Assembly (NCBI GenBank): GCA_963713975.1
Contig: OY970218.1
Coordinates: 2,464,001-2,528,000 of the forward strand
Length of the DNA: 64,000 nucleotides
Source: an uncultured Chloroflexia bacterium
GTDB lineage: Bacteria; Chloroflexota; Limnocylindria; Limnocylindrales; CSP1-4
Direction: 5' to 3'
A program made the translations under genes and the position numbers. Position 1 is the stretch's first letter, and the number at the start of each line of letters is the position of its first letter. This document shows, piece after piece, positions 34,256 to 37,835 of this stretch. The notes beneath the pieces are model-generated. The model saw only the letters and a list, made by a program, of their open reading frames with translations. It was not told where the DNA came from and searched no databases.

Positions 34256-34723
34256 CTACGCCTTCGCCAGGGCCTGGAGTAGCCGGTCCACGAACACCGA
34301 CTGGGCAGGGCTCAGGCGCCGGCGGGCCTCTGCCGGGTCCGCCCACAGCACCCGGTCGATCTCGGGCACGGTGATCAGCTGACCGGTCTTCGGGGGCCAC
34401 TCCACCTCGACGGTCATGCTCCGCACGCGTCTCGGATCGAGGTCCCCTTCGATGCCCCACGCATGGACAATCTTGCCCGAGCGCATGCGCACCTCGCCCA
34501 GGTCGATCGGGTCGCCGTTCGGCGGATTGTGCCCGGTCTCCTCCTCGAACTCGCGACGGGCGGCGTCGAAGAGGTCCTCATGGTCGTTGGCCGCGCCCTT
34601 GGGCAGCGACCAGGCGCCGGCGTCGCGTCGAGCCCAGATGGGGCCACCCGGATGGGCGACGAGCACCTCGATGTCGTCACCCGAGCGACGATAGAGGAGC
34701 AGGCCGGCGGACAGCTTGGGCAT
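34256..34723 (-). CDS. NUDIX hydrolase
   Basis: HPGGP.W and WSLPKG...AARREFEEETG Nudix box. Confidence 0.9.
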   Translation of the reverse strand: MPKLSAGLLLYRRSGDDIEVLVAHPGGPIWARRDAGAWSLPKGAANDHEDLFDAARREFEEETGHNPPNGDPIDLGEVRMRSGKIVHAWGIEGDLDPRRVRSMTVEVEWPPKTGQLITVPEIDRVLWADPAEARRRLSPAQSVFVDRLLQALAKA

Positions 34724-34773
34724 GAGGCTCTCACAGCTCGAGCAGGAGGCTCTCGAGGACTCGCGGGGCACAC

Positions 34774-34959
34774 GAAAGCGCCCGAAGGAACCGTACCGCA
34801 CCGCCTCGCCCACGACCTTGCCGAGCAAGCTCGGCCCTGTCGCAGCGGCTCCGTCTCCAGCCACCCCGCCAGCCTTGCGGCCACCGTGGCGGCGGTCCGG
34901 GGACCCGGTCCGATCATTGCTGACCGGTCCGGTGTCGGTGCCACCGGCCCCTTCGGGCA
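34774..34959 (-). ncRNA. Candidate ~185-nt structured ncRNA (6S-like size and closing stem, or a new class)
   Basis: 14-bp terminal helix (34958-34945 with 34793-34780), GCAA, GCAA and G(CUUG)C tetraloop hairpins, G-U pairs possible only on the minus strand, a promoter at the 5' end and a short U tract at the 3' end. Confidence 0.7.
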
Positions 34960-34965
34960 AACCGA

Positions 34966-34994
34966 ACGATATCGGCGGGGGCCTGGGGTGCCAA
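34966..34994 (-). promoter_or_regulatory. Sigma70-type promoter of the candidate ncRNA
   Basis: TTGGCA-N17-TATCGT; the predicted TSS coincides with the first base of the closing helix. Confidence 0.6.
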
Positions 34995-34999
34995 CCGGG

Positions 35000-35074
35000 T
35001 TGTCCACGACTTTGACGGATTCGGGCGCGAAGTTGTCCACGATGTCGGGCCGGTCGTGGACAAGCTGTGGACAG
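35000..35074. promoter_or_regulatory. Cluster of four DnaA-box-like 9-mers
   Basis: TTGTCCACG at 35000 and 35033; inverted CGTGGACAA at 35055 and TGTGGACAG at 35066; each has one mismatch to TTGTCCACA. Confidence 0.7.
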
Positions 35075-35127
35075 GGGGTCGTTTCCGGGGGAGGCGCCGG
35101 CCCCCGCGCTGAGCGCGTGCCGCCAGC

Positions 35128-35266
35128 CGGTTCAACCGTCAGGTGAGCGCTCGTTCGAGCCGCTCCGCGACACGTTCCTGGGGGCCCGGGGCGGATCAGG
35201 GCGTCGGCACCCGACGGGTGCGCCGGCCAGCGGCGCAAACGGGCAGGCACCCAACCGTTCAACCGG
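35128..35266 (-). repeat. Palindromic dispersed repeat, copy B (139 bp)
   Basis: The reverse complement aligns end to end with 44932-45070. Confidence 0.7.
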
Positions 35267-35328
35267 GCAGCGGCTCCTGGGGCGCCAGGCGCGGTTGGCC
35301 CCGGCGCCCCAAACCACGCGACGCCCGG

Positions 35329-35961
35329 TCAGTCATCGTCGGCGACGACACCCCTGGCAGAGCGGGCCGGCGCAACCTCGTGGTGCCGCAGGCAGCGAGC
35401 CTCGTAGGTCTCGATGGCACGTCCATCGAACCCGCCGATGACGATCAGCGGGTCGTCGATCGCGGCCGGCCGGCCGCCCACCAGGCGCTGGGTGCGGGTC
35501 GCGGTCTCGCCGCATACCACGCAGATCGCCGAGAGCATCGTGATCTGGTCGGCCGTCGCCAGCAGCATGGGCATCGGGCCGAACGGGCGCCCCGCGAAGT
35601 CCGTGTTCAGGCCGCTCGCGATGACATGGCGGCCGCTGTGGCGCAGCGTCTCCGCGGTCTGGGAGAGGCTGGCGTCGAAGAATTGCGCCTCCTCGATGCC
35701 GACGAGATCCACGTCGCGCTCGCGCGCCAGCGACAGGATCGCGACCGGCTCACCCTTGGGCACCAGGACGGACGGGAAGCGCGCGTGGCTCCGGCTCTCG
35801 GCGTACTCGCCGGGCGTGCGGTCGTCCACATCGGGGCGCACGAGCAGGATGCGGCGCTTCGCGATCTCGGCGCGGCGGAGGAGGCGCAGCAGCTCGTCGG
35901 TCTTGCCGGACGACATGCAGCCGGCGATGACGTGGAGCCAGGGATCGGCGCGGTAGAGCAC
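35329..35961 (-). CDS. tdk: Thymidine kinase (TK1-like)
   Basis: GCMSSGKT, EEAQFF, SGLNTDF...PFG, Zn motifs CVVC and YEARCLRH. Confidence 0.92.
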   Translation of the reverse strand: MLYRADPWLHVIAGCMSSGKTDELLRLLRRAEIAKRRILLVRPDVDDRTPGEYAESRSHARFPSVLVPKGEPVAILSLARERDVDLVGIEEAQFFDASLSQTAETLRHSGRHVIASGLNTDFAGRPFGPMPMLLATADQITMLSAICVVCGETATRTQRLVGGRPAAIDDPLIVIGGFDGRAIETYEARCLRHHEVAPARSARGVVADDD

Positions 35962-36030
35962 GGATCGAATTACCGGCTTCGCGGCCATTCGGCGGGCGCG
36001 GTTGCGCGTCGGGCGCGGTACCGTGGCAGG

Positions 36031-37023
36031 GTGAGCGCGATCTCGGTCGATGGGCTGACCAAGCACTACCTGACGGGCGGGTGGGGCAGGGGAGCCCGAC
36101 GCCCCATCCACGCCCTCGAGGACGTGACCCTGGAGGTCCGTCCGGGCGAGATCTTCGGGTTCCTGGGCCCGAACGGTGCGGGCAAGTCCACCCTCATCCG
36201 GCTGCTCCTGGGCTACCTCCACCCGACCGCGGGCCGGGCGAGCGTCCTGGGCCTGGACATCGAGCGCGACTCGGTCGCCATCCGGTCCCGCACGGGCTAC
36301 CTGCCCGGTGGCATCGCCCTCGACGACGGGCTGACGGGCGAGCGCCACCTGGACGATCTCGCGGCCCTCTCGGGCAGGCCGCCGGTGCGCCGGAAGGAGA
36401 TCTGCGATCGCCTGGAGCTGAGCGACCGCATCCTGCGTCGCCCGATCCACGGCTACTCACGGGGCATGCGCCAGAAGGTCGGGATCGTGCAGGCGCTGCA
36501 GCACGACCCGGAGCTGGCGATCCTCGACGAGCCCTCCGAGGGCCTGGACCCGCTCATGCAGCGCGCGTTCTACGGAGTCCTCGAGGACCTGCGGGCCGAC
36601 GGGCGGACGGTCTTCTTCTCGTCGCACATCCTGTCCGAGGTGGAGCGCGTCTGTGATCGGGTCGCGATCGTCCGCGGCGGGCGCCTGGTGGCGACCGAGG
36701 ACGTGGGCACGCTCCTCGCGCAGCGCAAGCGCCGGGTGGAGCTCCGCTTCGACGGGGAGGCTCCGGTGCTCGCGGCCGTCGATGGCGTGTCCGGCCTGGC
36801 GGTCGAGGCGGGCCGCCTGACCTGCGCCCTCGTCGGCGACCCTCGCCCGTTCCTTGCCGCCATCGCCGGTGCGGCGGTCACGGACCTCGTCATCGAGCCC
36901 TCGCGACTGGAGGACGCGTTCCTCGAGCTATACGCGGGCGAGGAGGCTGCCGAGGTCGCGGCGGACGAGGTAACGGGCAACCCCGGAGACACGGACCCGC
37001 CCGACCACGGAGCGCAGCGGTGA
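36031..37023 (+). CDS. ABC transporter ATP-binding protein
   Basis: GPNGAGKST, YSRGMRQ, ILDEP and SSH motifs; TACCGT 6 nt upstream of the GTG. Confidence 0.93.
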   Translation: MSAISVDGLTKHYLTGGWGRGARRPIHALEDVTLEVRPGEIFGFLGPNGAGKSTLIRLLLGYLHPTAGRASVLGLDIERDSVAIRSRTGYLPGGIALDDGLTGERHLDDLAALSGRPPVRRKEICDRLELSDRILRRPIHGYSRGMRQKVGIVQALQHDPELAILDEPSEGLDPLMQRAFYGVLEDLRADGRTVFFSSHILSEVERVCDRVAIVRGGRLVATEDVGTLLAQRKRRVELRFDGEAPVLAAVDGVSGLAVEAGRLTCALVGDPRPFLAAIAGAAVTDLVIEPSRLEDAFLELYAGEEAAEVAADEVTGNPGDTDPPDHGAQR

Positions 37024-37835
37024 CCGGCCTGCTCAGCCTTCCGCTCCTCCGCCGGACGTGGCGTGCCCAGCGATCCCGCCTCGGCCTGGTCGCGCTGGCG
37101 CTCGGCGTGTGGGGGTTCCTGATGCCCGTGATCTACGCCACGTTCGGGCGCCAGCTGTCGGTCATCCTCGATACGGGGATCATCCCGGATGCGTTCCTGC
37201 GGCTCATGGGCGCCGACCCGTTCAGCCTCGAGGGTGCCGTGGCGCTCGGCTGGGTGCACCCCATCGCCATCGGGCTGCAGGTCATCTTCCCGATCGGGCT
37301 CGGGGCGGCGGCGATCGCGGGCGAACGCCAGCGCGGGACGCTGGAGGTGCTGCTCTCGCGGCCCCTGTCGCGGCGGCGGCTGTTCACGACCTACCTTGCG
37401 GCCCTGATCGGCTTTGGCGCGATCACCACGGCCGCGGTCCTCGTGGGCACCCTCGCGAGTGCCGCGGTCTACGGCGTGACAGGGGAGCTCGACGCTGGCG
37501 CGCTGGGGTTCCTGGCGGTCAACACCGTCCTGCAGCTGGCCGCGTTCTCGGCGCTGGCGCTGGCAGCATCGGCATCATCGGACCGGCTGGCGCCGGCGCT
37601 CGGGTTTGGCCTGGCGGTCCTGCTGCTGGGGTACGTCCTGCAGGTCCTGGGCACGATCTGGCCGGATGCGGCGTTCCTCCAGCCGCTCTCACCGTTCCAC
37701 TACCTGCGCCCGCTGGAGGTGCTGAGCGGCCGCGCCGAGCCGATGGACCTCGTCGTCCTCGCCGGCGTCACCTTCGTGGCCGCGGCCTGGGGGCTGTGGC
37801 ACTTCCCGCGTCGGGACCTCGCCGCGCCAACCTGA
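37020..37835 (+). CDS. ABC-2 type permease
   Basis: GERQRGTLEVLLSRPLSR, about 6 TM, C-terminal RRDL. Confidence 0.9.
   Translation: MTGLLSLPLLRRTWRAQRSRLGLVALALGVWGFLMPVIYATFGRQLSVILDTGIIPDAFLRLMGADPFSLEGAVALGWVHPIAIGLQVIFPIGLGAAAIAGERQRGTLEVLLSRPLSRRRLFTTYLAALIGFGAITTAAVLVGTLASAAVYGVTGELDAGALGFLAVNTVLQLAAFSALALAASASSDRLAPALGFGLAVLLLGYVLQVLGTIWPDAAFLQPLSPFHYLRPLEVLSGRAEPMDLVVLAGVTFVAAAWGLWHFPRRDLAAPT

Follow-up and report, generated by a model that had tools for sequence, protein, structure and literature searches.

The minus strand of a 64,000-nt stretch of contig OY970218.1 (assembly GCA_963713975.1, positions 2,464,001 to 2,528,000; this whole stretch is the window below, and positions are counted from its first letter) from an uncultured bacterium of the Limnocylindrales encodes a structured RNA of ~179 nt at 34780-34958 (genome coordinates 2,498,780-2,498,958), preceded by its own promoter and by four sites resembling the binding box of the replication initiator DnaA. 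The locus is probably a self-contained cassette making a stable, compact non-coding RNA, one of four in a genome of 3.62 Mb (92% complete), and our preferred interpretation is that such cassettes form a new RNA family, stable and structured, whose promoters are under DnaA control, probably by activation. What is new relative to known systems is an uncatalogued RNA family with DnaA-box-like promoters. A preliminary description, made from the sequence of the window, had proposed an unannotated structured RNA with its own promoter on the minus strand, and the fold, the covariation among relatives and contigs from public RNA libraries all agreed with this proposal.

Architecture, fold and expression of the RNA

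Read along the minus strand from 35074 to 34770, the locus comprises four DnaA-box-like sites, a -35 hexamer, a 17-nt spacer, a -10 hexamer, the 5′ strand and then the 3′ strand of a closing helix (P1), and a U-rich tail. A promoter scan registered TTGGCA (-35, 34989-34994) and TATCGT (-10, 34966-34971) as the sole promoter-like site in 34400-35500 (34994-34966, minus strand; shuffles gave 0.0 ± 0.1), which is the TTGGCA-N17-TATCGT promoter proposed earlier, and judging from this promoter the RNA 5′ end should lie at or beside G34958, 7-8 nt past the -10. The four sites match TTGTCCAC(A/G) and occupy 35074-35000, two per orientation, as had been claimed. The most distal, site 1 (CTGTCCACA, 35066-35074, minus strand), varies as TCATCCACA or TCGTCCACA across 25 same-genus regions and is separated by 11 bp from site 2 (TTGTCCACG, 35055-35063, minus strand); site 3 (TTGTCCACG, 35033-35041, plus strand, thus CGTGGACAA along the RNA strand) was recognized by sequence match and in the same-genus alignment, and site 4 (TTGTCCACG, 35000-35008, plus strand) ends 5 bp before the -35. 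The array, at about -45, -78, -100 and -111, is helically phased and abuts the sigma-70-type promoter. The genome holds 239 sites with no more than one mismatch to TTGTCCACA, and this locus, with four within 75 bp, is its sole 300-bp interval with three or more, so that the cluster is unique in the genome.

P1 is formed by GCCCGAAGGGGCCG (34945-34958), which is invariant family-wide, and the complementary CGGUUCCUUCGGGC (34780-34793), and RNA-library contigs stop at 34780 or 34783. The helix has 14 pairs, two adjacent G-U pairs among them, and is continued by a 4-bp GCAC/GUGC helix (34941-34938 with 34801-34798). It closes a four-way junction whose three arms are all capped by tetraloops (GNRA, GNRA and CUUG): P2 (34902-34936, with GCAA here and GUGA or GCGA in relatives), the central arm P3 (34851-34900, tip GGCC-GCAA-GGCU, drawn from RNAalifold and covariation) and P4 (34807-34847, tip GCCGAG-CUUG-CUCGGC). 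The tail GCUUUCGUGU (34770-34779) comes directly after P1 and is missing from the RNA-library contigs. The end helix, GC-rich continuation, three hairpins and tail given in the preliminary description were each found in place. The minimum free energy of the minus strand was -116.3 kcal/mol (z = -4.58), a value equaled in 0 of 200 shuffles; that of the plus strand was -93.1 kcal/mol (z = -3.17). The conserved G-U pairs fit the minus strand only, because the opposite strand would have C-A mismatches, which bears out the suggestion that such pairs are restricted to this strand.

A 331-nt region containing the locus was recovered from 23 of 24 other genomes of the genus (79-91% identity) and from 0 of 16 genomes of a neighboring small-genome family. 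Across the 25 same-genus regions, conservation runs from box 1 to the tail, and the spacer from there up to the ATG of the downstream NUDIX hydrolase gene is not conserved. Consensus folds were calculated with RNAalifold and compared with controls in which pairing partners were slid along the alignment. For the 25 same-genus sequences, 98.7% of cells pair (slid controls: 29-47%), with compensatory changes in 7 pairs. For a MAFFT alignment of RNAs of the same type from many genera (A-type; 57 of 65 listed ~180-nt references, near-duplicates dropped), 88.8% of cells pair (slid controls: 30-46%), double changes occur in 31 of 61 pairs and 237 cells (slid controls: 49-66 cells), and the covariation score was equaled by 0 of 500 shuffles, so that the test for covariation in relatives suggested by the preliminary description came out in favor of the RNA. 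P2 and P4 were the best supported arms, with compensatory changes in 7 of 11 pairs of P2 and in all 12 pairs of helices 9 and 10 of P4. P1 columns 1-5 and 8-12 are invariant in all 57 sequences and the tandem G-U pairs are kept. An extension of the NUDIX coding sequence in frame through the RNA (open reading frame [ORF] 34256-34960) was considered and rejected on account of single-base indels in relatives and the loss of conservation before the ATG.

Among public runs, 12 from seven studies (11 of them recorded as RNA) contain short portions of a 1075-nt query covering the locus and its surroundings, and contigs from four runs of four studies were placed on it. In three runs from three studies (X1, X4 and X5), contigs were confined to 34779-34949, where their summed word depth reached about 7000, with no cover on NUDIX, the boxes or the upstream thymidine kinase gene (tdk). 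On the low-coordinate side the contigs end at the final base of P1 and do not include the U-rich tail, and the loose ends directly past 34780/34783 and past 34937, 34940 and 34949 are adapter-like. We take this loose-end sequence to be Illumina adapter, in which case the sequenced inserts ended at these positions. On this basis, the existence of a discrete and abundant RNA some 170-180 nt long is moderately supported.

A family of cassettes with a common promoter module

The genome carries four paralogous cassettes, namely A (the window locus, ~179 nt, minus strand), B (359,821, minus strand, ~144 nt), C (3,040,227, plus strand, ~118 nt) and D (1,770,438, minus strand, ~73 nt), and in all of them P1 closes the fold (z = -3.4 to -5.2). 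Each has 3-4 boxes, the final one a GTGGAYAA ending 5 bp before the -35, followed by a TAnnnT -10, and each RNA starts with GCCCGARGGGGC and ends with YUUCGGGC and then a U-rich tail. The interiors differ among A-D; the boxes, promoter geometry, tail and P1, an invariant helix of GCCCGAAGGGGC and GUUCCUUCGGGC with tandem G-U pairs, are common to all four. Every part of this family definition (box, -10, RNA ends and tail) is present at 34770-35074. Across the family, lengths range from 73 to 190 nt, with up to four paralogs per genome, and tails read GCUUCGUU, GCUUUCGU or GUUUCGUU.

To establish the distribution of the family, 401 genomes sampled from the class were searched with the pattern GTGGAYAA-N38-44-GCCCGARGGGGC. 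Matches were obtained in 106 genomes (102 of 137 in the same family; 2 of 16, 0 of 92, 1 of 153 and 0 of 2 in other families), at 1-4 copies per genome and sometimes in tandem, and the reversed control pattern matched none of the 401. A scan of all species representatives yielded at least 122 stretches, and 77 of 80 among the matches listed bear Chloroflexota-type names. Rfam (15) gave no match in the whole window at the gathering score and none for paralog loci B-D; a search of 34500-35300 at E ≤ 10 brought up just two models, mir-m22-1 (E = 3.3) and, on the plus strand over the boxes, Ms_IGR-2 (E = 2.5), both far below cut-offs, and ARAGORN found no tRNA or tmRNA in the same region. The earlier proposal of a new class of non-coding RNA thus stood up to comparison with Rfam, which has no family for the window locus or its paralogs.

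Boxes and RNAs are linked across the family. In 73 unique members, the 170 nt upstream of the RNA held on average 3.55 GTGGAY/RTCCAC cores, against 0.22 in the next 170 nt, and the cores occupied fixed positions relative to the RNA start (-49/-50 in 71 of 73, -82/-83 in 53 of 73, then -92/-103 or -103/-114). Many of these members had been retrieved by a box-containing pattern, and the test was repeated on RNAs selected by their two ends alone. Among 32 unique RNAs of this kind, 29 had the proximal core (27 as full GTGGAYAA), two more had GTGGAAAA and one was without a box; upstream regions averaged 3.0 cores against 0.31 in the control. The tie between promoter and DnaA-box-like sites claimed for the window locus therefore holds family-wide. 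Spacings from the proximal box were 33, about 53 and about 64 bp, near whole helical turns. In 216 unique family promoters, TAnnnT was found 5-9 nt before the RNA start in 204 and TTG at the -35 in 162.

Several further features of the cassettes were recorded. Cassette C (3040177-3040345) is about 7 kb from the cumulative GC-skew maximum at 3,047,269, the likely terminus, and the distance of cassettes B and D from the origin is about 0.7 Mb, in opposite directions. A recurrent hairpin with the loop GAUCAC(A/C)UCAAGG, present in 33 of 77 RNAs, is shared by subtypes B and D and by long RNAs from other genera, and the C subtype is marked by a second recurrent hairpin, CGCAGGUGCUUGCAUCAGCG. The two are built alike, with a small loop atop 3 bp of stem, a 2x2 internal loop and a further 4-bp stem, and may be binding modules. 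Two explanations of the GAUCAC(A/C)UCAAGG loop were discarded: mimicry of the 16S 3′ end (anti-Shine-Dalgarno), since the CCUC core is not conserved, and mimicry of the AT-rich repeats of the origin, which do not match.

DnaA as candidate regulator and competing explanations

The universal DnaA box is TTATCCACA, and alternation of A and G at position 3 is a known tolerated variant. The preliminary description had taken the sites for the high-GC, actinobacterial form of the box; the host belongs to the Chloroflexota (Limnocylindrales) and is not actinobacterial, and that part of the premise fell, but GTGGAC/GTGGAT cores of the same kind crowd the lineage's own dnaA-dnaN spacers. In six such spacers we counted 5, 1, 7, 8, 7 and 7 cores per 620 nt, against 1-2 per 1000 nt in dnaA coding sequence, an enrichment in five of six, the genome with the single core being L158. 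In the genome studied here, dnaA and dnaN are at 1.072-1.075 Mb, beside the cumulative GC-skew minimum (1,079,330; maximum 3,047,269) and 1.42 Mb from the RNA locus. The spacer between them (about 1,073,215-1,073,730) is the likely oriC; it and four other dnaA-dnaN spacers show forward GTGGAC/GTGGAT cores, then reversed cores, then a conserved AT-rich stretch of period 3 (ATGATGACGGTGATGACGGAATGAGAAGATAGG). Just one of the 239 near-consensus sites of the genome lies in oriC, and the cassette boxes are closer to consensus than most oriC boxes. When the genome was searched for the combined box and promoter pattern, five matches were returned: the four RNA cassettes and the rsmG/gidB promoter (minus strand, about 1,140,538-1,140,615), where CGTGGACAA stands 6 nt before TTGACG and a perfect TTATCCACA about 30 bp further upstream, a box pair with the cassette geometry. 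Neighbors of the cassettes are replication or nucleotide genes (tdk and NUDIX for A, punA and thyX for B, and a DnaB-like gene and ppa in other genera). Genome-wide density of loose 6-mer box cores was set aside as evidence, coding regions giving equal counts. From the sequence comparisons it appears likely that DnaA binds the boxes. In Pseudomonas aeruginosa, gidAB-parAB is reported to be under DnaA control (PMC13438810).

We suggest that DnaA would bind the box array, whose core is that of the lineage oriC and of the rsmG/gidB pair, and would most likely activate transcription; activation is favored because the proximal box lies just upstream of, not over, the -35, and a quarter of family promoters are without a TTG -35. 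RNA output would then report the DnaA (replication-initiation) status of the cell, and P1 with the U-rich tail, a terminator-like end, would both stop transcription and protect the two RNA ends. A long single-stranded seed is not seen in the A-type RNA, which is therefore more likely to serve in trans as a scaffold that binds a protein or ligand than as an antisense small RNA (sRNA). Some transcription that depends on DnaA may, in addition, escape past P1 into the downstream gene, here the pair of NUDIX and the class-A penicillin-binding protein (PBP) gene PBP1A. A broader and distinctly more tentative proposal is that these RNAs form an RNA arm of the DnaA regulon in Limnocylindria, in which DnaA-ATP might switch on structured RNAs from the strongest box arrays of the chromosome and the RNAs, via their invariant closing helix as a shared protein-recognition and terminator module, might tie the state of initiation to genes for nucleotide precursors and to other genes, or might act back on DnaA. 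To our knowledge, no replication-to-RNA circuit of this kind has been described in model bacteria.

The gene order around the RNA was as first described, with tdk (35329-35941, start approximate; the TK domain is residues 171-357 of ORF 35329-36450) upstream and NUDIX (34256-34723; PF00293, E = 4.3e-12; a specific NCBIfam assignment was not found) followed by the PBP1A gene downstream, all on the minus strand. NUDIX begins 57 nt downstream of the RNA, and read-through possibly reaches it. Each subtype has its own order: tdk, RNA and NUDIX for A; moaA, RNA, a second conserved structured stretch and a purine nucleoside phosphorylase gene, with thyX nearby, for B; hflX, a hypothetical gene, RNA and a CAAX protease gene for C; and ybaK, a PQQ-repeat gene, RNA and a hypothetical gene for D. 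Among 80 NUDIX loci, 26 have an A cassette upstream, none of these with a NUDIX identity below about 60%, and at the other 54 no RNA motif was found upstream of NUDIX. In other genera, a homologous ~185-nt RNA sits between a DnaB_C helicase-like gene and ppa (DnaB_C in five of six upstream ORFs examined, Pyrophosphatase in four downstream ORFs), and in the genome studied here a DnaB_C-like gene and ppa are adjacent (2854318-2856286), with a 328-nt spacer holding no cassette. A specific link from replication to the cell wall, as had been suggested for this locus, found no support in this comparison, the NUDIX-PBP1A pairing being limited to close relatives and replaced elsewhere by DnaB-like/ppa. 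In the genome studied here, TAGAGT stands 7 nt ahead of the ppa ATG, a possible sign that the ppa mRNA is leaderless.

A number of observations weigh against an independent, DnaA-activated RNA, some of which concern the RNA itself and others, given with the alternatives they favor, its control. The library contigs reveal neither the strand nor the true ends nor the expression level of the RNA; most of those placed are 85-99% alike to the locus and so derive from relatives, and the fourth run (X12) was discarded as support, its contigs being low in depth and divergent, with some extending past the RNA ends. P1 is without covariation (9 of 14 pairs are invariant and the conserved core has no double change), and its pairing rests on complementarity; an apparent case of covariation in two distant members (A7 to G with U to C in the 3′ strand) was rejected, as in register it yields G-U plus A-C and is not compensatory. 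A simple terminator scan found no terminator-like site at the RNA end, because the tail holds too few U for the rule of the scan. The preference for activation over repression as the most likely mode draws on box position and weak -35 elements.

Chief among the alternatives is a cis-acting leader or attenuator of the downstream gene (NUDIX-PBP1A here; ppa, punA or CAAX-protease genes elsewhere), with P1 and tail as a conditional terminator, a ligand or protein reading the variable interior or the shared P1, and the abundant ~179-nt species as the terminated leader, an explanation we consider the less likely one but a serious competitor. The RNA is on the NUDIX strand, 57 nt upstream, and the promoter scan found no promoter-like site between the RNA and the NUDIX ATG. 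By a crude ORF call (a GC3 filter, with no gene model), the downstream ORF is co-oriented and close in 39 of 45 callable members, with six opposite and 10 without a call. A subtype also keeps the same downstream gene family across genera: the 34 downstream ORFs comprised PNP_UDP_1 (13, with the short B-type), Rce1-like (6, with the C-type), Pyrophosphatase (4, with the long A-like type), other families (4) and no family (7), and NUDIX and ppa both cleave pyrophosphate bonds. In addition, the 5′ strand of P1 could form a local GCCC-GAAG-GGGC hairpin competing with P1. However, upstream neighbors (moaA, hflX-hypothetical, ybaK-PQQ and DnaB-like) are conserved too, and such pairing can thus be plain inherited gene order. 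A single invariant P1 and promoter across unrelated interiors and downstream genes is unlike independent riboswitch classes; A-type cassettes have different downstream genes by genus, and the ppa of this genome has none. Cassettes also occur in tandem, each with its own promoter (in 5 of 60 members the next feature is another cassette), all A-type arms are capped by stable tetraloops, and contigs from three studies end at P1 with no downstream cover. We favor an independent and probably trans-acting RNA, maybe leaking transcription into the next gene, because a common chassis bears unrelated interiors, upstream neighbors are conserved, the A cassette has relocated, tandem copies exist and contigs stop at P1.

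Other alternatives accept the RNA and differ on the boxes or on what the RNA does. A factor other than DnaA that recognizes TTRTCCAC is a possible binder, in which case the boxes would be operators of a different lineage-specific transcription factor with DnaA-box resemblance only, and the RNA regulon would be unrelated to replication. The cassette boxes prefer TTRTCCAC-G in a fixed array, as at dedicated activator sites (such as the GacA boxes of Rsm RNAs), and no such box was seen in the region upstream of dnaA. Against this, the core equals that of the universal DnaA box with its tolerated alternation at position 3, it is enriched in most of the dnaA-dnaN spacers, a perfect box in the same geometry precedes rsmG/gidB, and the neighboring genes are replication- or nucleotide-related, and we think this explanation unlikely. 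A reservoir of DnaA at the DNA level, like datA or DARS, where the cassettes titrate or recycle DnaA and transcription is secondary or clears DnaA from the sites, could account for the density of near-consensus boxes at the locus, their closeness to consensus relative to oriC and the spread of four loci round the chromosome, one of them 7 kb from the GC-skew maximum. The fixed spacing of proximal box to -35 points to promoter control, however, and an abundant RNA under strong structural selection (covariation and conserved G-U pairs) is not a by-product; a reservoir is compatible with a DnaA-controlled RNA, but as the explanation of the cassettes we regard it as very unlikely. Least probable of all, to the point of being hardly credible, is a 6S- or Ms1-like RNA binding RNA polymerase, by mimicry of promoter DNA or other sequestration; a 6S-like RNA was one of the two options given in the preliminary description. 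The RNA does resemble 6S (RF00013) and Ms1 in being an abundant product of a stand-alone gene, about 180 nt long and with its 5′ and 3′ ends paired, and the Rfam model found no 6S gene in this genome at E ≤ 1, such that the niche may be open (6S was found in just 5 of 14 control genomes). Yet 6S is a rod with a central bubble, and here three covarying hairpins meet at a four-way junction without one, paralogs of 73-190 nt share its ends, and no 6S or Ms1-type model matched the region at E ≤ 10; the claimed 6S identity was accordingly abandoned. Ms1 (about 300 nt, Actinobacteria) was likewise rejected, the neighbors here being tdk and NUDIX and the lineage Chloroflexota, and its synteny, given in PMC9130861 as a HAD-IB hydrolase gene with an oxidoreductase gene, does not fit the locus.

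Relation to known systems and other features

DnaA serves both to initiate replication and as a transcription factor acting on a few protein genes, with dnaA autoregulation, nrdAB and Bacillus subtilis sda as examples. The cassettes resemble this regulon in having box arrays beside promoters of replication and nucleotide genes, and the rsmG/gidB promoter of the same genome has the same geometry; they differ in that the main products are structured non-coding RNAs and that the arrays are the strongest box clusters of the genome, above oriC. Multi-copy sRNA families with a dedicated transcription factor are known in Qrr1-5 (LuxO/sigma-54) and RsmX/Y/Z (GacA upstream box), which likewise have several paralogs per genome, sometimes in tandem, with their own promoters, a shared upstream site at fixed distance and a conserved RNA module. 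In the cassettes, by contrast, the site is DnaA-box-like, the conserved module is the closing helix instead of a seed or GGA loops, and the RNAs have no sequence or Rfam relation to Qrr or Rsm. Orphan non-coding RNAs such as the raiA motif are similarly conserved, covarying, tetraloop-rich and lineage-restricted, the difference here being a shared promoter and operator chassis and an invariant closing helix linking unlike RNAs, with no Rfam match. In the open-access literature nothing relevant was found on a DnaA-dependent sRNA family or on a non-coding RNA of Limnocylindria. Three further candidates were rejected on the content of the 92%-complete genome: a bacterial Y RNA with Rsr (no Ro/TROVE protein, PF05731), a Csr/Rsm sponge (no CsrA match, and A-type loops that are GNRA and CUUG, not GGA) and an Hfq-dependent sRNA (no Hfq match).

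If the proposed control by DnaA is true, a multi-copy, abundant RNA family on the best DnaA-box arrays of the genome would be a new kind of replication-initiation output and would offer a handle on cell-cycle control in Limnocylindria, which are widespread uncultured Chloroflexota of soil and freshwater. The family is recognizable by pattern and visible in metatranscriptomes, and RNA level is thus testable as a marker of replication activity in situ; the closing helix, invariant and with tandem G-U pairs, offers a defined bait with which to seek a protein partner. Even without the DnaA link, the RNAs constitute a new family, strongly supported by covariation, that is due for inclusion in RNA family catalogues.

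Some minor observations were made on the genome and the window. Between the B RNA and the punA start, a second conserved and apparently structured stretch (359520-359690, minus strand), also found in relatives, had no Rfam match and may serve punA as a leader or riboswitch. Two Bac_DnaA matches, both weak and with an identical score of 34.7 bits in 310-aa frames (1270622-1270945 and 3344547-3344870), look like one element present twice, possibly an IstB-type helper ATPase of an insertion sequence. The window also holds the ORFs of an ABC transporter ATPase (35143-37023, plus strand) and an ABC-2 permease (37020-37835, plus strand), and the former runs over the opposite-strand tdk frame; its true start is therefore probably well downstream of 35143.

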